Counted from the stretch's first letter, positions 10,964 through 39,923 are shown. The stretch is 54,936 nucleotides of DNA from Candidatus Thorarchaeota archaeon (GCA_048883065.1 JBHLQZ010000001.1:1-54936), one strand, 5' to 3'. Translations and numbers: made by a program. The notes: generated by a model not told the origin, from the letters alone.

Positions 10964-10980
10964 TTTAAACATTTATTATT
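10964..10980 (+). promoter_or_regulatory. Candidate BRE/TATA region for the five-gene operon
   Basis: TTTAAACATTTATTATT ends 21 nt upstream of the ATG at 11002. There is no SD-like motif before this first gene, consistent with a leaderless or near-leaderless transcript. Confidence 0.3.
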
Positions 10981-11001
10981 GAAACACATTGACGAAGCCT
11001 A

Positions 11002-11598
11002 ATGACAAACTTCATCCAAAATATTTCACAATCTATTCGTAGAAGACTAGGTTACCCAGAAGTAACAATACTGGTTATGGGAGATGATATACCAGCAACC
11101 AGAAACAGAGTTTTATTGTTACGTTCTTATACTTCTTTAAGAGAATTCATAATAGATAGTTACTTAACAGAATTGCCATACACAGAGAAATTTAAATTTA
11201 AACCAAAGCAATTCTTACCCTTTGAAGGACTTCTTTATTTGATAGATGCTACAAAAGAAGAGATGATTAAACATGAAAGAAATTATTTTTGGGAGAAGAT
11301 TATCTGGGCAGAAGAGACCAAGAACTTACCAATAGCTGTATGTGCTTACAACTCTGAGCTTCAAGGAGCTCTATCTAGAGGAGAACTAATTGAGAATTTA
11401 TCTCTGATTAGACTTACAGATCGTCTTTGGAATCTTTTTGAAATATCCAACGAAGAATCTATGCTTGAAGTGTTAAAGTGGATGAAACAAATAATTCATA
11501 TGGGTTATGTTAAGTCTTGGTCAGAAAAAGAAAAATTATTAGAAAAAATAAAACCAATTAAGATTCAAATTCCTTCAGAAGAAGAGAATGATAAATAA
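11002..11598 (+). CDS. Arf/Arl/Sar-like small GTPase fold with degenerate G1, G3 and G4 motifs (predicted pseudo-GTPase)
   Basis: By-eye alignment to Arf1. N-terminal helix plus VTILVMGDDIPATRN corresponds to RILMVGLDAAGKTT (P-loop GK lost). GLLYLIDATKEE corresponds to GLIFVVDSNDRE. IAVCAYNSEL corresponds to LLVFANKQDL (NKxD becomes YNSE). RLWNLFEIS...VLKWM corresponds to RNWYIQATC...GLDWL. No DxxGQ is present. Confidence 0.6.
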   Translation: MTNFIQNISQSIRRRLGYPEVTILVMGDDIPATRNRVLLLRSYTSLREFIIDSYLTELPYTEKFKFKPKQFLPFEGLLYLIDATKEEMIKHERNYFWEKIIWAEETKNLPIAVCAYNSELQGALSRGELIENLSLIRLTDRLWNLFEISNEESMLEVLKWMKQIIHMGYVKSWSEKEKLLEKIKPIKIQIPSEEENDK

Positions 11599-11613
11599 AA
11601 AGAGGTACCTCCC

Positions 11614-13161
11614 ATGGCTCAAACTATAGAGAAATTAATGAAAGATGGATATTCTGGATACTCAATTAGGTCAATCCTAATGAATCCAGAATTTAGAGAT
11701 AGAGTGTTAAAAGACGTTAGTGTAAGAGGTAATGAAGTAGGTAAAAATTTAGTAATGGATAAATTAGCAGTTGGTGGTAAAGTACTACTCACAGGACCTA
11801 CAGGAGAAGCAAAAACTCTTTTCGCCAGAGTGTTGCTTGATCATATTGTTAGGGAAATTAACAATTATAAATATCACATAGAAGGATGTCCTTTCTTAGA
11901 AGATGCTGGATATATTGCAGATGTTATAAACAACTTCCAATCCAATCCTTTTGCCGGTATTCGTGTGCTACAGTCTTTATGTCCATATTGTAGGCAAAAT
12001 ATCGAGAACATCCTCTCAGGTGATAATAATCCTGTGGATTTAGATAATACAAATAGTGTCTTACAAATAACCCCCAAAGATGTAATTAGTAAACTAGGAA
12101 AGCTCAAAGCACAAAAAACAATAGTTAGAAGAGCTCAACTTGATCCAAGAACAGATCCAGAAAGTTTATACATGCTTCTCGCAGGTGTTGAAAATCTTGA
12201 AGAACTATTTGGAAAAACTACTTCAACAACATATGCTGCAACTTCACATAAAGTTGGGGTTCTATCACATGGTTTTCTAGTTGTTAATGAAATTCAAAGG
12301 CTTCCATTAACTTTGTTAGAATCACTTATGGGTTTTCTAGAAGAACCTATGGGTATTAAGTACAACATACAAGGGGAACCAGTTTATATTGATGGTGCTG
12401 TTCTTTTCACATCTAATGCACCACTAACAGTATTTGGAGAAGAAAGTCAACCCATCATTAATCGTATTCCTGAAGTACTCTGGCCTGCTCGTTCAGTGGA
12501 AAGTAGAGAACAAATTATCAAGGATATGTTTGAAGAACAAATTATACTTTCAAGGAAGAAAATCACAGCAAATCCTTCAATTATACAATTGCATGAACTA
12601 GAAAAAGAAACAACTGACTTCGTTAGTCGTTTAGCAGTAGATTTTCTTGCATTCCTTGGAAATAATTCTTTACCTGGAACATTAAAAACAAAAGGATTAC
12701 GCTCAGAAAGTCGTGTTGCTAGGAACGATTTCTATTCCGGTTTAGATGAAATTCATGATCCTCAAAGAACTCCCCATATCGATCTTCGAACCATGAACAA
12801 TATTATTGGTGAGACAGTTCTCTTACAAGCAAGAGAAATAGAAGAAGATGTTAACGTTGTTACACTAGAAAGAATTAGAAACATAATGGGTGCATATGAC
12901 ATACCAGTTTCAATGATAAATGATGCTTTACAACAAATGAAAATTGTTCTAAGAACAGCAATAAAAGAATCTGAGGTTTCAATAAGCGTTCAAGATATCT
13001 CTGAAGATATCTCAAAAATGAAAGCTCTAAGCGATGAAGAATTAGCGCAGTTGATTGCTAAATTTGAAGGATTAGACAAATTCAAAGAAAATATTAGAGA
13101 AAAAATAATTGAAAAACTTAAACCGTCCTACGAACAGTTACTGAAAGTTGACTATATCTAA
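11614..13161 (+). CDS. AAA+ ATPase of the Mg-chelatase subunit I (ChlI/BchI) / MoxR type with non-canonical Walker A and B motifs
   Basis: GGKVLLTGPTGEAKTLFARVLL is Walker A with Ala replacing the second conserved Gly. HIEGCPF resembles the ChlI EGCP block. HGFLVVNEIQRL is Walker B with Asn in place of Asp. AVLFTSN and IINRIPE are sensor/Arg-like blocks. A GAGGT SD-like motif lies 7 nt upstream. Confidence 0.7.
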   Translation: MAQTIEKLMKDGYSGYSIRSILMNPEFRDRVLKDVSVRGNEVGKNLVMDKLAVGGKVLLTGPTGEAKTLFARVLLDHIVREINNYKYHIEGCPFLEDAGYIADVINNFQSNPFAGIRVLQSLCPYCRQNIENILSGDNNPVDLDNTNSVLQITPKDVISKLGKLKAQKTIVRRAQLDPRTDPESLYMLLAGVENLEELFGKTTSTTYAATSHKVGVLSHGFLVVNEIQRLPLTLLESLMGFLEEPMGIKYNIQGEPVYIDGAVLFTSNAPLTVFGEESQPIINRIPEVLWPARSVESREQIIKDMFEEQIILSRKKITANPSIIQLHELEKETTDFVSRLAVDFLAFLGNNSLPGTLKTKGLRSESRVARNDFYSGLDEIHDPQRTPHIDLRTMNNIIGETVLLQAREIEEDVNVVTLERIRNIMGAYDIPVSMINDALQQMKIVLRTAIKESEVSISVQDISEDISKMKALSDEELAQLIAKFEGLDKFKENIREKIIEKLKPSYEQLLKVDYI

Positions 13162-13196
13162 TAAGAGTCTTATAATAACCGTTTGGAGATGATAAA

Positions 13197-14582
13197 TTGC
13201 CACATAGAATATATTTCATTACAGAAGCTGAATTCACAGATCCATTACAACACTATGGTGATGTAGAATTTGTATTGGATTTTGAGGACGCTGCTCAAGT
13301 CTTACGGTTATGGAGAAATCCACATTTAGGTAGAAGCTCGCGTGAAGGAGCAGTTCTATCAATCGCAGCAAAAAACTCTGTTGCTATCGAAAATATACTT
13401 CAGAAAATCATGAATACTTATCTTACTCCTGAAGAAGAAGAGCGTTTAGTTAATGAACTGAAACTTCTAAGATTCATAGGAGATCATGTTCTCCCCGATG
13501 TTTTAGAAAGAGTTAATCGTAATGAACTCCAGACTCTCGAAGATATTCTAAAGTATATACAAGATTTATTACGTGAATTAAAATACGAAGGTTCAATCGA
13601 TTTGCAACAACTAGCTGATAAATTAAATCAACTAAAAGATATAGTAGATATAGAAATTACTGATGCTTTTGGAAGAAAAAAGAGGATTTCACGCGAAAGT
13701 GTCATGGATTTGCTTGGAAAAATATTAGGTCGATATTTGTTGAAACAAATTTCTGTTGCTCCAATTGATGAAATCCAAAAACGTCCAAGAGGAACTATTC
13801 GTTTAAAAGAAACCTACAGAAGCGCAATTCTTGGTTCTCAAACAATACCTCCAACCTCAGTCAAACAAGAAGACATTGTGAGAGTAAAGAAAGACAGACG
13901 ATCTTTGGTTTATCTTATTGTAGATATGAGTCAATCAATGAGAAAAACTGTTTTTGAAGGTAAAATGTCTAGATTAGATGGAGCTCTATTAACAAGTTTA
14001 AGTCTTTATTACTATTTTAAACTAATAAACAGAAGAAAAAGAAAGCGTCATGATATGTTCAAACTTGCAGTTGTACCTATAAGAAAAAATACAACAGTAG
14101 TTGATGACGATAAAAAAATGGAACATCTTCTGTTATCTGCAGAAGCTAAAGGAAAAACATACATGGTTCAAGCTGTTCAAGCTGCAATTGAACATGCGAA
14201 AAAGCAACATTTAGACAAAGACATAGATGTTCAATTCACTATAGTAACAGACGGTATGCCCAATGTTCCAACTTTACCATTTAACTACCGAAAAAGTGAT
14301 GCTTTAATTAGATATTTCTCTGAAATACAAACTAAAACTAAACCAGAAACAATAGAGTGTTTAGTTCAACTTAACGCTATTTTTACTAGTCTGAAAAAAG
14401 ATCGTTCAAGGAAATGGAACATATCTTATTTCTTAATGGGAACAGAGTCACTCCGCAACAAAGAGTTATACATTCATACAAAACAAATGCTGAAAGGTAT
14501 TACTAGACCAATTTTAATTGATCCAGCCCAAATCAAGAAATTAGGGGAACAAATTCTAAAGGAGAGTATATTGTATGCTTAA
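13197..14582 (+). CDS. von Willebrand factor A (VWA) domain protein with intact MIDAS and a helical N-terminal region of about 230 aa with no recognisable family
   Basis: LVYLIVDMSQSM is the MIDAS DxSxS. It is followed by GKTYMVQAV (Thr) and FTIVTDGMPN (Asp). TTG start, with GGAG 8 nt upstream. Confidence 0.75.
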   Translation: MPHRIYFITEAEFTDPLQHYGDVEFVLDFEDAAQVLRLWRNPHLGRSSREGAVLSIAAKNSVAIENILQKIMNTYLTPEEEERLVNELKLLRFIGDHVLPDVLERVNRNELQTLEDILKYIQDLLRELKYEGSIDLQQLADKLNQLKDIVDIEITDAFGRKKRISRESVMDLLGKILGRYLLKQISVAPIDEIQKRPRGTIRLKETYRSAILGSQTIPPTSVKQEDIVRVKKDRRSLVYLIVDMSQSMRKTVFEGKMSRLDGALLTSLSLYYYFKLINRRKRKRHDMFKLAVVPIRKNTTVVDDDKKMEHLLLSAEAKGKTYMVQAVQAAIEHAKKQHLDKDIDVQFTIVTDGMPNVPTLPFNYRKSDALIRYFSEIQTKTKPETIECLVQLNAIFTSLKKDRSRKWNISYFLMGTESLRNKELYIHTKQMLKGITRPILIDPAQIKKLGEQILKESILYA

Positions 14583-16149
14583 AGTTGAATTAGAAGAAAT
14601 TGTTGAGGTTTACCAAAAAGCTAAGGCAGATTTTAGGGTTTTAATGGGTTCTAATCCAGAAAATTATCGTGTTCTAATTTTTATAAATCCCGAACTCCAT
14701 GTTTCAGTTAACCGTGTTGTTGAAATAACTGGAACCCCTCAAGCAATACTTACATCTGAGCAAATTACAAACTTAAGATCAGCTAGAATAAATGATTTTC
14801 TTCCAACGGGAAAGGAAACCGTTTATAACTCGTTACCTACATTAATTTATCTTTCAGTGCCATCTTATGATTTAACAAAAGAACAAGAATTAACACTACG
14901 AATTATGCTAATTCATGCTTTTGCTCATGCTTATATGAACGAAAAAACGGAATCAAATTCTGCAAGAACTCTTTCAAAACTATATCAAATTGATGTAATT
15001 CTAAAAGAGTTGATGGTAAATAATGTTTTCAAATTAAATCAAACATCCGGAAACAAGCATAGTTGGGCTTGGCAATACTTCCAAGATTTAATTGGTGTGA
15101 TACGTTTATTTACTGAATCAAACGTAGAAGATTTTTACACTCCTCCTGAGGATGCAAGAAAATATACTTTATTCAATAATTTCTCGATAGAAGCTATAAA
15201 TTTAATAGGAGAAAGGGCTAAGCTCGCAAGGAAAAAACACCTTCATGAATTAATCGATGAAGGTTTTGCGCACTATATACAAATGAAAGCCTTAGATTAT
15301 TTACTTGAGAAAGAGGAATATAAACTACCTAAGAGAGATGAAGATAAGAAAATACAATATCCAAACGATTTGAAAGCATTTTTAGCTCCACCAATTGGAG
15401 AATTTAGTCTTGCTATAATGGAACGACTTCTAAGTAAACTTGGAAATGAAGAGGAAATGTTCAAGAAACTCTTTAGCTACAAATCAGATTATGAATTGTT
15501 AGAAGAATTCTCATGGGATGAAGTTAAAGATTTACTAGCAGTGAATAAGAATATACACTCTGAAAGTGTTGTTGAAACATGGCATTCTTCAAAAAGTAGA
15601 TGGACTGATATCTGGTCTGTTTATGCTTATGGTTGGAGATTAATAGAAGAATATACCAGAAAAGTATATAGAAAGAAATACTCAACTTTCGGACAAATCC
15701 TTGATGATAAACCAAGGATAACTTCCAAAGGCTATGTTAAGGTGGGAGAAAAGAAAGTATACGTTTTTGAAATTAATGACTATGGAATTGGAATTGATCA
15801 ATTAGTTATCCTCCATAATCATATGTCTCTTTATAGAGATGATTTTCGAACAATTTTACCTGCTTTTGCTGATGTGGTGATATTCAAGAAACTAGGTGGA
15901 ATACATGTAGCAACACTCTTTGCAGTTCATAAAACAAGGTATCAACCATTATCTCCTTATAATTTACCAATCGCAACAAGAGCTGTGCAAGTTACAAAGA
16001 AGAAAGATGCATACAAATTTGATTTAGACGATGAGAAAGATGAAAAGATAGATGTAAGTGAAATTGATTACACATATTTACACAAAGTAACACAGCCGCA
16101 GAGGGGAGCTTTGGCTTATTTAATCAAAGAGGGGGTATATGAATTATGA
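14575..16149 (+). CDS. Hypothetical 524-aa protein with an HAxxH motif; possible inactivated zincin-like domain
   Basis: Long uninterrupted ORF. Its start overlaps the VWA gene stop by 8 nt, with GGAG 10 nt upstream. Motifs are LIHAFAHAYMNE (HAxxH, aa 114-118) and LIDEGFAHYIQ (aa 227-237). I recognise no other family signature. Confidence 0.55.
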   Translation: MLKVELEEIVEVYQKAKADFRVLMGSNPENYRVLIFINPELHVSVNRVVEITGTPQAILTSEQITNLRSARINDFLPTGKETVYNSLPTLIYLSVPSYDLTKEQELTLRIMLIHAFAHAYMNEKTESNSARTLSKLYQIDVILKELMVNNVFKLNQTSGNKHSWAWQYFQDLIGVIRLFTESNVEDFYTPPEDARKYTLFNNFSIEAINLIGERAKLARKKHLHELIDEGFAHYIQMKALDYLLEKEEYKLPKRDEDKKIQYPNDLKAFLAPPIGEFSLAIMERLLSKLGNEEEMFKKLFSYKSDYELLEEFSWDEVKDLLAVNKNIHSESVVETWHSSKSRWTDIWSVYAYGWRLIEEYTRKVYRKKYSTFGQILDDKPRITSKGYVKVGEKKVYVFEINDYGIGIDQLVILHNHMSLYRDDFRTILPAFADVVIFKKLGGIHVATLFAVHKTRYQPLSPYNLPIATRAVQVTKKKDAYKFDLDDEKDEKIDVSEIDYTYLHKVTQPQRGALAYLIKEGVYEL

Positions 16150-16916
16150 TGGACTTCTTTAGAGGGATGGTTATTGGAAGAAAACTAAAAAGCGAGAAAC
16201 CATTAGATAGAGTACACTTCGCGCTTTTTCTACAGAAAAAACCTAAAACAAGGAATGTTAAGAAAATTCTTCCTCTAATAGAAGATGCTGATTGGAATGT
16301 TAGAAATGCAGCAACTTCAACATTAATTCATCTGATAAAACATTTTCCTGAAACAAAAGAGAAAGTGTTGGAAAACTTGCATAATTTGATTGAAAGAAGT
16401 TCTTTAGCGATCAAATTATCAACTTTAGAAGTTTTAGGGAAACTGAAAGATTATTCATCTAAACCTTATCTTGTTAAGGTTCTAGAAGAAAGCGATTATG
16501 ATCTACAATATGCAGCAATAAGAGCTATAGGATATCTAGATGATGTTGATGTATTGTACCCTCTCACAAACGTAGTTTATGCTAAAGATTACATAACTAG
16601 AAGGGCAGCTATTTTGTCAGTGATTAGAATTTCTAATTCTGTCAAAGCTGAGGAACAAATAGAAAAACTTACTCCACATATCCATATAATTATTGAATCT
16701 TATCTTGAGTTAGATCAATTAGGTGAAATCTTCTGCAAGATTCTAGATTACGGTGATTTCAACCAATTCCCAAATATGAAAGGATACAATGAATCAGAGA
16801 TAGTTAAATTAGAAGATTTAATAGAGCAAAAAGACTATAGAGTAGAAATGTATCAAAACTTCGCAAAATTGATTTTCCCCAAATACTTCCCAATTGTTGA
16901 GAATATAAATTCATGA
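16146..16916 (+). CDS. HEAT-repeat (PBS-lyase-type) alpha-solenoid protein
   Basis: Repeated D-x-D/N-W/x-x-V/I-R-x-x-A units about 31 aa apart: EDADWNVRNAATSTLIHL, SSLAIKLSTLEVLGKL, ESDYDLQYAAIRAIGYL and KDYITRRAAILSVIRI. ATGA overlap with the upstream gene. Confidence 0.72.
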   Translation: MMDFFRGMVIGRKLKSEKPLDRVHFALFLQKKPKTRNVKKILPLIEDADWNVRNAATSTLIHLIKHFPETKEKVLENLHNLIERSSLAIKLSTLEVLGKLKDYSSKPYLVKVLEESDYDLQYAAIRAIGYLDDVDVLYPLTNVVYAKDYITRRAAILSVIRISNSVKAEEQIEKLTPHIHIIIESYLELDQLGEIFCKILDYGDFNQFPNMKGYNESEIVKLEDLIEQKDYRVEMYQNFAKLIFPKYFPIVENINS

Positions 16917-16917
16917 A

Positions 16918-17187
16918 TTAATGTGTAAAGATTTTTTCACAATAATCTATGAAAGTTTTTTTAAATTTTTTACAAATTTCTTCTTGTTTCCACTTTTTAC
17001 ATATATATTTTTTAGTTTCTGATGAACATAAATGAAAACAAGTAGTTAAGAGTGCATAACCCATCATTCTCACTTGAATATCAGAACTTTCTAACATTAC
17101 TAATGCTCGTTTTTGATGTGGAATTTTAACATTGATTTTAAGTAATTGCGTCTCTCCTAAGCTTGTTGCGTTCAACATATTTTCCAT
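16918..17187 (-). CDS. Small hypothetical Cys-rich protein (89 aa)
   Basis: ORF only. Convergent with the HEAT gene, with stop codons 1 nt apart. Contains one HEAT-like unit, SSDIQVRMMGYALL. No start-site support. Confidence 0.35.
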   Translation of the reverse strand: MENMLNATSLGETQLLKINVKIPHQKRALVMLESSDIQVRMMGYALLTTCFHLCSSETKKYICKKWKQEEICKKFKKTFIDYCEKIFTH

Positions 17188-38945: not shown

Positions 38946-39033
38946 TTTTTATTTTATTTCATAATTTCGTTTTTCACATAGATATATGATTTAACAGAAA
39001 GAATAAAAAGCGAAGAGATGAAAGAAACCACAA

Positions 39034-39126
39034 GGGCCAGTAGTCTAGTATGGATAAGGCATCGCCCTTCGGTAGTTTACTGGAGAAAGGCGAAGGTCGT
39101 AGGTTCAAATCCTACCTGGTCCGCCA
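39034..39126 (+). tRNA. tRNA-Arg (anticodon UCG) with a 15-nt intron at the canonical 37/38 position (39073-39087); CCA encoded
   Basis: Acceptor GGGCCAG/CTGGTCC. D-arm GTCT-AGTATGGATA-AGGC. Anticodon stem TCGCC/GGCGA. T-arm GTAGG-TTCAAAT-CCTAC. The loop plus intron folds as bulge(3)-helix(4 bp CUUC/GGAG)-bulge(3), with both splice sites inside the bulges. Confidence 0.8.
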
Positions 39127-39182
39127 AACTAATTCCCAGAGCAGATATAGAAAATTCTCAAAACAATAATAGTGTGTGCAAT

Positions 39183-39923
39183 ATGAGAAACAAAAAAACC
39201 TTAATGCTAACCATCTTAATTATACTCTACTCCTTTCTTACTTTACTTGCTTCAAATGGTTTCTCACACAAGCTGAATTTAAATGTTGAAGATTGGTTAA
39301 AATATAGGATTCTAGCTTCTAGCGATACTGAAAATATGTTTGTTGGAAACTGGCCCCCAAGCTACTATTATGGAAATTGGTCAGTCATACCCGAAGATTG
39401 GATTATGTTTAATGTATCTTCCGTTATCTCTTCCGAAATCAATGGCACATTATTTCTTGGAAACACAATAAATAACACTATATTTTACAATGTAAGAAAT
39501 ATAGATGTTGCATTTGCTTTAAGTTTGAGTATATACCCTTGGAATGGAGGTTTTTTTGCTAATGAATCGGATTGGGACAATATTGAATTACAAGTCCAAG
39601 AGACAAACACAACTATAAACAATCTATCTAATTTTGAACATACACTTAATGGAACAACACATTCGTACGAAGTTAAGATTTTCAATACAAAAGATTACTA
39701 TGGTCAAAATTCCTCATTCTATTATCATTCAGATACCGGAATACTTCTCAAAGCCTATACTTCTTATGGCTTATATGAATTGAACATAACTTTGGTTTCT
39801 ACTAGCATAGAAATTAATCCCACAATGCAGACAACTGGATATGGCTTTAATTTAGCTATTGTGTCTATTGCTCTCATCCCTGTAATTCTTCTATTTAGAA
39901 GGAAATACTTCGATCGTAAATAG
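39183..39923 (+). CDS. Secreted, C-terminally anchored glycoprotein-like surface protein
   Basis: Start moved to the ATG at 39183 (MRNKKTLMLTILIILYSFLTLLASNG) because the upstream part of track ORF 39018-39923 is the tRNA-Arg gene. About 10 NxS/T sequons. C-terminal TM plus the basic tail RRKYFDRK. Confidence 0.55.
   Translation: MRNKKTLMLTILIILYSFLTLLASNGFSHKLNLNVEDWLKYRILASSDTENMFVGNWPPSYYYGNWSVIPEDWIMFNVSSVISSEINGTLFLGNTINNTIFYNVRNIDVAFALSLSIYPWNGGFFANESDWDNIELQVQETNTTINNLSNFEHTLNGTTHSYEVKIFNTKDYYGQNSSFYYHSDTGILLKAYTSYGLYELNITLVSTSIEINPTMQTTGYGFNLAIVSIALIPVILLFRRKYFDRK

Follow-up and report, generated by a model that had tools for sequence, protein, structure and literature searches.

A five-gene AAA+/VWA module with an Arf-derived pseudoGTPase in Heimdallarchaeia

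Five co-directional genes lie between positions 11,002 and 16,916 of a 54,936-nucleotide (nt) stretch of archaeal DNA (Candidatus Thorarchaeota archaeon, GCA_048883065.1 JBHLQZ010000001.1:1-54936), the whole of which is referred to here as the window. The question raised by this locus is whether the five genes work as one system and, if so, of which kind. The original prediction, made from the sequence alone, described them as a conserved and undescribed system based on an AAA+ ATPase and a von Willebrand factor A (VWA) protein. This proposal is supported by the conserved order of the genes and by the profile searches, since the searches of Pfam, NCBIfam, PADLOC, the PHROGs and the PDB sequences placed the genes in no characterised pathway. 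No description of the module was found in the full-text literature. The five genes, named g1 to g5, are the following:

11002-11598, + strand: g1, Arf-family pseudoGTPase, 198 amino acids (aa)
11614-13161, + strand: g2, divergent AAA+ ATPase, MoxR/ChlI/sigma-54-activator-like, 515 aa
13197-14582, + strand: g3, VWA protein with a helical domain at the N-terminus and, at the C-terminus, a VWA domain whose metal ion-dependent adhesion site (MIDAS) is complete, TTG start, 461 aa
14575-16149, + strand: g4, Heimdallarchaeia-specific protein of no recognisable family or fold, 524 aa
16146-16916, + strand: g5, HEAT-repeat protein, 256 aa

What is new in this locus is that the known AAA+/VWA pairing is accompanied by three extra conserved, lineage-specific subunits, one of them an Arf-derived pseudoGTPase and another (g4) without detectable relatives.

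Inheritance and layout of the module

The distribution of the module was scanned in one genome per GTDB species, which gave 38 loci, and further assemblies were added. The order and orientation of g1-g5 were the same in every species-representative locus long enough to span the module. At least three deep clades of Heimdallarchaeia, whose flanking genes are unrelated, share this order, and the intergenic spacing stayed between -44 and +74 nt across ~45 loci. The window has a G+C content of 30-37%, and its nearest relatives are all labelled Heimdallarchaeaceae or Heimdallarchaeota. In the Heimdallarchaeaceae the module is flanked by NUDIX and uvrBC genes. In a second clade, where g4 and g2 are ~37% and ~54% identical to the window copies, the flanks are an actin-like gene, a DEAD/DUF5814 helicase and MMPL, and in Kariarchaeaceae-like contigs they are FKBP, SHMT and other genes. 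Conservation of the gene neighbourhood, which the original prediction had put forward as a check of the system, was in this way observed in all spanning loci and in clades with differing flanks.

A split variant was found in the fourth and most divergent clade, where the AAA+ gene is divergently transcribed from VWA-g4-HEAT and is still adjacent to them; no Arf-like pseudoGTPase was found adjacent to the module of this clade. The AAA+ gene is followed there by a conserved protein of 171-178 aa with four hydrophobic helices (L047:11593-12108, + strand; L049:1693-2229, - strand). Two proteins of this clade, one of 391 aa that contains HEAT repeats and the other of 171 aa, were considered as hidden homologues or fusions of g1 and were discarded, as hhalign was negative and the 171-aa protein is a four-transmembrane protein.

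A word-indexed search of 5.8 billion proteins returned 39 clusters for g4 and 108 for g2, and all of those with a named source carried a Heimdallarchaeial, a generic Asgard or another archaeal bin label. In the g2 search nothing was found between E = 1e-112 and the 0.01 cut-off. The orthologues are named in their sources as "hypothetical", "ADP-ribosylation factor-like", "VWFA domain" or "HEAT repeat". No relative of g2 or g4 was found among the IMG/VR viral contigs and a PHROG scan gave no convincing match, on which grounds a viral origin of the module was rejected.

The pairwise identities of the five proteins correlated with r = 0.97-0.99 over 34 loci (the window and 33 others), with the lowest cross-clade identities of the module proteins at 29-50%. 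The ratio of non-synonymous to synonymous substitution rates (dN/dS) was 0.04-0.09 for g1-g4 between the window and its closest relative, and a single module locus was present in each of two complete Heimdallarchaeum genomes. The module is a vertically inherited, single-copy and strongly constrained five-gene unit, and therefore bears the signature of a housekeeping complex, not that of a defence island or mobile element. It is a real and conserved unit that occurs solely in the archaeal lineage nearest to the eukaryotes; no homology link to a eukaryotic system was demonstrated.

The layout in the window was re-found exactly as originally described, with the same coordinates for the five co-directional genes, intergenic distances of 15 nt (g1-g2) and 35 nt (g2-g3), and overlaps of 8 nt (g3/g4) and 4 nt (g4/g5). 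Shine-Dalgarno (SD)-like motifs were also located as predicted, 7-10 nt 5' of g2, g3, g4 and g5 (GAGGT, GGAG, GGAG and GAGGGGG, respectively), and inspection of the upstream sequence revealed none before g1. Since such motifs precede 16 of the 46 open reading frames (ORFs) of at least 150 aa in the window and occur in 10% of random 17-mers, their presence before all four internal genes is above background, but neither extraordinary nor decisive alone. They are consistent with SD-dependent internal initiation. Upstream of g1 two further elements were recorded:

10964-10969, + strand: TATA-like element TTTAAA, at -38 to -33 from the g1 ATG, candidate archaeal operon promoter
10989-11001, + strand: short leader with no SD motif, abutting the g1 start (window TTGACGAAGCCTA; relatives TTAGCGAAGCCCA)

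In an alignment of the upstream regions, TTTAAA, CTTAAA or GATAAA was kept at the position of the first element in 19 Heimdallarchaeaceae loci, and a leader of ~13 nt ending at the g1 ATG was also conserved in this family. The AT-rich box at 10972-10980, variable among the relatives in the same alignment, had been named originally as the TATA-like element and is replaced here by the conserved TTTAAA. Archaeal TATA boxes are centred ~26 nt upstream of the transcription start. Together with the position of the element, this distance points to a very short, SD-less g1 leader, so that the 5' untranslated region of the g1 mRNA would be very short or near-leaderless. The early proposal of a leaderless first gene was roughly right, but the box named for it is not the conserved one. 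Spacing, SD motifs and conservation together argue for a single transcript covering g1-g5. The overlap of g3 and g4 probably entails translational coupling, and the overlapping g3, g4 and g5 are probably made in a fixed ratio. Scans for bacterial promoters and terminators showed no enrichment, such models being irrelevant for an archaeon.

The five proteins

The relationship of g1 to the Arf family was evident from a Pfam Arf match of 28.6 bits (cut-off 22.3) covering the C-terminal half alone. The same family was matched by 14 of 15 g1 orthologues (best E = 4.7e-11), and among the PDB sequences Arl3, Arl8 and Arl1 were matched at ~1e-5 over residues 71-165. The nucleotide-binding motifs were checked in an alignment against genuine Arf/Ras genes (three real GTPases) from related Asgard contigs. 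Compared with eukaryotic and Asgard Arf/Arl proteins, g1 retains the C-terminal half of the fold and has lost the P-loop, DxxGQ and most of NKxD. The P-loop GxxxxGK[ST], present as GxxGVGKT or GLENAGKT in genuine GTPases nearby, is replaced in three clades by GDDIPATRN, GEKTETRDY or GKAKPLLDR, with G27 alone invariant. The DxxGQ motif (switch II) is absent, the interswitch region is shortened by a gap of ~27 residues, and only the Asn of NKxD (N117) is retained, in the forms YNSE, YNAE and PNSK. The Arf-typical C-terminal block is strongly conserved (SLIRLTDRLW, the LxLxxLxxRxW region). The GTPase fold with degenerate nucleotide motifs that had been read from the sequence was in this way corroborated. 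The dN/dS of g1, 0.086 against a 94%-identical orthologue, reflects purifying selection and therefore a functional pseudoGTPase, not a decaying gene. Judged by its motifs, g1 is an Arf-family fold that is unable to cycle nucleotide. It appears to be the first operon-embedded Arf-family pseudoGTPase in archaea, no description of one having been found in the full-text literature. PMC11914678 characterises Asgard Arfs that act as nucleotide switches; the terms operon, AAA, HEAT, Willebrand and pseudo do not occur in its text, and neither does any term beginning with "neighbo".

In the Heimdallarchaeaceae the N-terminal helix of g1 is basic and amphipathic (hydrophobic moment 0.45-0.81, net charge +2 to +7) and sits where the membrane helix of an Arf would be, and in the second clade the C-terminal tail is polybasic (+5 to +12). 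These charged ends are compatible with membrane tethering, and equally with contact to nucleic acid.

Genuine GTPases are also encoded in the vicinity of some loci. An Arf-family GTPase of 312 aa with a long C-terminal extension (L001:531-1469) lies ~5 kb upstream of the Heimdallarchaeum module, and its C-terminal block ETLELPRLSN was the most g1-like among the three real GTPases aligned. Genuine Arf/Ras genes were also observed 5-10 kb from the module in L047 and L049.

The AAA+ protein g2 is the most conserved of the five (at least 50% identity across clades), and the invariance of its motifs was judged over 28 sequences. Its Walker A, GPTGEAKT, is an Ala-before-Lys variant in which G61, E65 and K67 are invariant. 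In Walker B (VVN225-E226-IQR) the usual Asp is replaced by an invariant Asn and the Glu is kept. Both TSN268 at the sensor-1 position and R284 at the Arg-finger position are invariant. The Walker A helix is followed by an insert of ~80 residues, and C92, C123 and C126 are at least 90% conserved. Substitution of the Walker B Asp by Asn in AAA+ proteins usually slows or abolishes hydrolysis, and the invariant Asn suggests a slow, switch-like ATP turnover in g2.

The assignment of g2 to a class within the AAA+ proteins was less clear. All 18 members examined matched Sigma54_activat, as a weak and partial match (for the window protein 21.2 bits, cut-off 20.2, over 48 residues), and AAA_5 (17 of 18) and Mg_chelatase (9 of 18) were matched weakly and under their cut-offs. 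In hhalign comparisons, E. coli RavA (GPPGIAKS) aligned in the P-loop region only, and E. coli YifB in the P-loop and the preceding VRGN...K segment, with probabilities for RavA/YifB in the range of 40-65%. The search of the g2 profile against the PDB sequences was empty, and an NCBIfam scan of 28 g2 orthologues was uninformative. The string NEIQRLP...LLESLMGFLEE...FTSN...INRIP resembles what we take to be the MoxR pattern, DEINRAP...LLEAMEE...TQNP...LDRF, a likeness that is a reading of motifs and not a test. In the AlphaFold2 (AF2) model, residues 177-286, the ATPase core, had a predicted local distance difference test (pLDDT) score of ~30; the Foldseek matches of this model are therefore meaningless and were treated as noise. 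As a result, the AAA+ part of the original ChlI/MoxR-like AAA+ assignment stands on the motifs present, but the ChlI/MoxR class rests on weak partial matches and motif reading.

The MIDAS of g3 is complete, with D243-x-S245-x-S247, T321 and D352 invariant in 16 orthologues. The Pfam family VWA_2 gave 18 bits for the window protein (cut-off 27) and was matched at E <= 1 by 14 of the 16 members (best 8.3e-5), and VWA_CoxE was matched by seven of the 16. The prediction of a VWA domain with a MIDAS is upheld by the invariance of all MIDAS residues, though VWA_2 remains below its cut-off for the window protein. The N-terminus MPHRI is conserved, which supports the TTG start. The g3 profile gave nothing usable against the PDB sequences, and the alignment of the VWA domain with E. 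coli ViaA by hhalign was non-significant. No AAA+ domain was found in g3, and thus no ChlD-type N-terminal AAA+. A helical N-terminal domain followed by a C-terminal VWA domain is the layout of ViaA, NorD and CbbO.

For g4, a profile search of 1.84 billion proteins returned 21 representatives. Pfam identified no consistent family in 31 members, and no match was obtained among the PDB sequences. The AF2 model of g4 is confident (pLDDT 82.7; predicted template modelling score 0.83), and a Foldseek search of PDB and BFVD with this model gave no match with E <= 0.001. The orphan status proposed for g4 is therefore maintained after the Foldseek comparison that had been suggested for all five proteins, although for g2 the same comparison was uninformative because the model core failed. 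The seven best PDB matches of g4 were DHH-family proteins (best E 0.066, TM-score ~0.1). A DHH/RecJ/Cdc45-like identity was not adopted, since these seven, some lower PDB matches and several BFVD matches of the same family were all non-significant (E >= 0.066, TM-score ~0.1). The viral protein A0A3Q8HYQ4 of BFVD (617 aa) was the sole g4 match of high Foldseek probability (0.99; E = 2.9e-3; TM-score 0.30-0.34).

Several His residues of g4 are conserved. Its HAxxH motif, HAFAH (H114, H118), has no Glu and is invariant in the three main clades; in the divergent orthologues both His are replaced (Q..Y, Y..K, Q..K and others). LILHNH (413-416) and H337 are at least 90% conserved, with LILHNH mostly kept in the divergent orthologues and single substitutions in three of them; H337, H414 and H416 are invariant in the three main clades and at least 90% conserved overall. 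A zincin metallopeptidase was rejected because the Glu of HExxH is missing, HAxxH is not conserved and no zincin was present among the Foldseek PDB matches of the confident model. The zincin-like reading of this motif in the original prediction was for these reasons abandoned.

The HEAT-repeat nature of g5 was confirmed by Pfam HEAT_2 (86 bits, E = 2e-24, four stretches) and HEAT (28.5 bits). In the repeat core WNVRNA, V52-A55 are invariant and W50 and N51 are at least 90% conserved. An adaptin match covered a single repeat, and g5 was classified as a generic prokaryotic HEAT_2 (PBS-lyase-type) protein.

Candidate functions

The closest known kind of system is represented by RavA-ViaA, NorQ-NorD, CbbQ-CbbO and CoxD-CoxE, in which an AAA+ protein (MoxR/ChlI/sigma-54-activator) is adjacent to a protein with a helical N-terminus and a C-terminal VWA domain with a MIDAS, an arrangement also seen in the module, in which the class of the AAA+ protein is tentative. 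The Walker A variant GxxGxAK[ST] is common to RavA and g2. By contrast, no cox, nor, cbb, frd or ldc target gene lies near the module, which adds three conserved subunits to the pair (the pseudo-Arf, g4 and the HEAT protein). It also differs in the Asn-Glu, not Asp-Glu, of the g2 Walker B, in the three conserved Cys of the ~80-residue insert, and in the divergence of g2 and g3, which is too great for family thresholds (Sigma54_activat is just above for g2, over 48 residues). The client linkage of CoxDE, NorQD and CbbQO was not observed: the flanks vary by clade, none of these enzymes recurs consistently in them, and only L047 has a RuBisCO gene in its vicinity. The Mg and Co chelatases ChlI-ChlD and CobS-CobT also combine an AAA+ protein with a VWA/MIDAS partner, and the weak Mg_chelatase matches of g2 recall them. 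However, no ChlH/CobN gene was found within 10 kb in any clade, no ChlD-type AAA+-VWA fusion and no adjacent tetrapyrrole genes were present, and the NCBIfam chelatase models were not matched by the module. Lacking both the ChlH/CobN subunit and the ChlD-type fusion, the module is therefore not a chelatase. The earlier observation that a ChlH/CobN-sized subunit is missing applies to the loci of every clade.

The interpretation that we favour, with a slightly better than even chance of being right, is that g1-g5 constitute one co-transcribed, vertically inherited housekeeping module of Heimdallarchaeia, encoding a multi-subunit machine for protein remodelling or assembly with a MoxR-type AAA+/VWA core. 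A remodeller of the MoxR type was chosen because only for the AAA+ and VWA/MIDAS proteins is the working principle well understood. On the model of RavA-ViaA, NorQ-NorD, CbbQ-CbbO and CoxD-CoxE, the g2 ring would pair with g3 as its VWA adaptor, the N-terminal domain of g3 docking on the ring. The MIDAS metal of g3 would then grip an acidic side chain of the client, and the nucleotide-driven movement of g2 would remodel it. The remaining proteins, g4, g5 and g1, would be stoichiometric partners, acting as a specificity scaffold or as the client. Since g3, g4 and g5 overlap and a fixed ratio is probable, the likeliest role for g4 and g5 is that of integral partners or of the client itself, and g1 may hold the complex at an anionic surface, for instance a membrane. 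Gene order, co-divergence, purifying selection, the states of the motifs and the restriction to one lineage were observed directly; what we infer is that the proteins form a complex, that ATP drives it, that g1 tethers it and that one transcript covers the genes.

Several points weigh against this interpretation. Given its Walker B Asn, g2 may be a switch or a pseudo-ATPase, not a motor. Its class is weakly established, the family matches being partial and near or under threshold, the PDB profile search empty and the AF2 core unreliable. Moreover, g2 orthologues without adjacent g1, g3, g4 and g5 were present in Hodarchaeales-like contigs and in one 2.85-Mb genome, so that either g2 need not accompany the other four or the genes are scattered in the genomes concerned.

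Four other explanations were weighed, along with a bolder variant of one of them. It is unlikely that g2-g3 insert a metal into g4 in the manner of CoxD-CoxE, NorQ-NorD or ChlI-ChlD, with the conserved His of g4 as acceptor site. Such a maturation of a metallocentre would agree with the VWA_CoxE matches in seven of 16 g3 members, the weak Mg_chelatase matches in nine of 18 g2 members and the YifB-like P-loop region, the probable translational coupling of the overlapping g3 and g4, and the five His of g4 (H114, H118, H337, H414 and H416) that are invariant in the three main clades, three of them (H337, H414 and H416) at least 90% conserved overall. However, H114 and H118 are lost in divergent orthologues, the g4 model is unlike any known metalloprotein in Foldseek, neither a ChlH/CobN-sized subunit nor a known metalloenzyme gene is adjacent in any clade, and no role would be left for the pseudo-Arf or the HEAT protein. 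A little more doubtful is a membrane or trafficking-like machine, analogous to an Arf-adaptor coat, in which a HEAT/g4 scaffold, anchored on the membrane by g1, would be put together or recycled by the AAA+/VWA pair. The Arf origin of g1, its basic amphipathic N-terminal helix in Heimdallarchaeaceae and its polybasic tail in the second clade speak for this, as do the conserved four-transmembrane protein after the AAA+ gene of the fourth clade, which has no adjacent g1, and a Roadblock/LC7 gene after g5 in 13 of 13 second-clade loci, the Roadblock/LC7 family being a partner of small GTPases. But a g1 that cannot cycle nucleotide offers no Arf-type switch, its basic segments could equally well bind nucleic acids, and g5 is a generic HEAT_2 protein of PBS-lyase type whose adaptin match is one repeat. 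The flanks of the second clade are wholly syntenic, so that the Roadblock adjacency may be passive, and no homologue was found among coat, adaptor or tether subunits. The variant that goes furthest is quite improbable: a Heimdallarchaeia-specific machine organising membrane or cytoskeleton, in which a nucleotide-blind Arf would tether a solenoid/g4 scaffold that a MIDAS-bearing AAA+ motor assembles or strips, as an independent counterpart of Arf-adaptor coats or midasin-type release factors, with a g4 fold unseen in solved structures. In midasin, one giant chain carries six AAA+ modules as well as a MIDAS domain of its own. The likeness of the module to midasin/Rea1-Rix1 is thematic only (AAA+, MIDAS and HEAT-type partners in one process), and no homology of Rix1, Ipi or Rsa4 to the module proteins was detected in Pfam, PDB-sequence and Foldseek searches. 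The midasin and Arf-adaptor parallels drawn in the original prediction are accordingly pure speculation by analogy.

A further possibility, that the module is a vWA-MoxR type of anti-virus or conflict system in which g1, g4 and g5 serve as sensors or effectors, was suggested by bacterial vWA-MoxR conflict systems, where genes for a vWA protein and a MoxR-like ATPase share one neighbourhood with those for scaffold or repeat proteins, some repeat proteins acting as effectors (Kaur et al., 2020; PMC7159879). These published systems are mobile, patchy and effector-bearing, whereas the module is vertical and single-copy, runs throughout several deep clades in which it co-diverges with the lineage, and is under strong purifying selection. 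Its matches in PADLOC-DB 2.0 were weak and partial only (TRIP13 at 3.6e-5 over 70 residues of the g2 N-terminus, and generic HEAT/HEAT-ARM models for g5) and not convincing. The Pfam and PADLOC scans revealed no effector domain of the nuclease, protease, TIR or pore-forming kinds, viral or mobile relatives were lacking, and the surrounding genes have housekeeping functions and do not make up a defence island; a role in defence is for these reasons very improbable. Even less credit, close to none, is given to five unrelated genes lying together by chance. The g2 orthologues without the other four genes in some lineages would fit such an arrangement, but it is contradicted by the conservation of the module: in clades with unrelated flanks, and at minimum identities of 29-50%, the genes retain their order, their orientation and their very short spacing, and the rearranged fourth clade still keeps four of the five genes together.

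Among known archaea the Heimdallarchaeia are the nearest relatives of eukaryotes, and machines that are specific to this lineage and universally kept in it are prime candidates for explaining its unusual cell biology. The module described here joins an Arf pseudoGTPase to a predicted AAA+/MIDAS motor, a type of motor known for remodelling large assemblies, and holds a 524-residue protein that is confidently modelled and yet has no detectable structural relative. It raises the question of whether small-GTPase folds were reused as static scaffolds before eukaryogenesis. As a compact and expressible five-protein target, it could be reconstituted, which would reveal how an AAA+/VWA pair acts on an Arf fold and a solenoid.

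Genes accompanying the module

In the second clade, a Roadblock/LC7 gene is located directly 3' of g5 on the same strand in all 13 loci that reach that far (L003:12515-12916, L005:12530-12934 and 11 more), usually ~170 nt after g5 (range ~140-410 nt). It was identified by Pfam Robl_LC7 (E = 4.8e-5) and is named "roadblock/LC7 domain-containing protein" at NCBI. Its identity within this clade, 73-85%, is above that of g1, g4 and g5, and it is absent at this position in the clade of the window.

The Hodarchaeales-like g2 orthologues are 42-45% identical to g2. They are flanked by conserved proteins of 192 aa, with two winged-helix-like halves, and ~205 aa (regions L046:9365-12464, L051:5835-7990 and L052:5973-9062), with SRP54 and RIO1 upstream, and no VWA, g4 or HEAT gene was found near them. 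The 192-aa gene upstream of this AAA+ gene was considered as an equivalent of g1 and was rejected: its product is tandem winged-helix-like (sub-threshold in Pfam) and was not matched by a g1 profile built without it.

In Ca. Heimdallarchaeum endolithica, an inserted Cas12f1-like TnpB gene (L001:13494-14945, 483 aa) separates the module from uvrB, and a gene similar to it flanks the module in L049.

The surroundings of the module in the window were as originally described, with unrelated neighbours: a NUDIX gene on the opposite strand, divergent from the module, and, on the other side, two small convergent ORFs followed by uvrB and uvrC. The two small ORFs are:

16918-17187, - strand: small ORF converging on the operon, 89 aa
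17262-17483, - strand: small ORF converging on the operon, 73 aa

No family match was found for either of them. Both are kept in most of the closer Heimdallarchaeaceae loci at 36-61% identity (86-91% in the closest relatives), and given this conservation they are taken to be real genes.

Additionally, a tRNA of 90 nt was detected farther along the window (39034-39123, + strand; Rfam 53.5 bits). ARAGORN assigned no anticodon to it, and an intron is therefore probably present. As this tRNA overlaps the 5' end of the mechanically called ORF at 39018-39923, the start of that ORF is probably over-extended.

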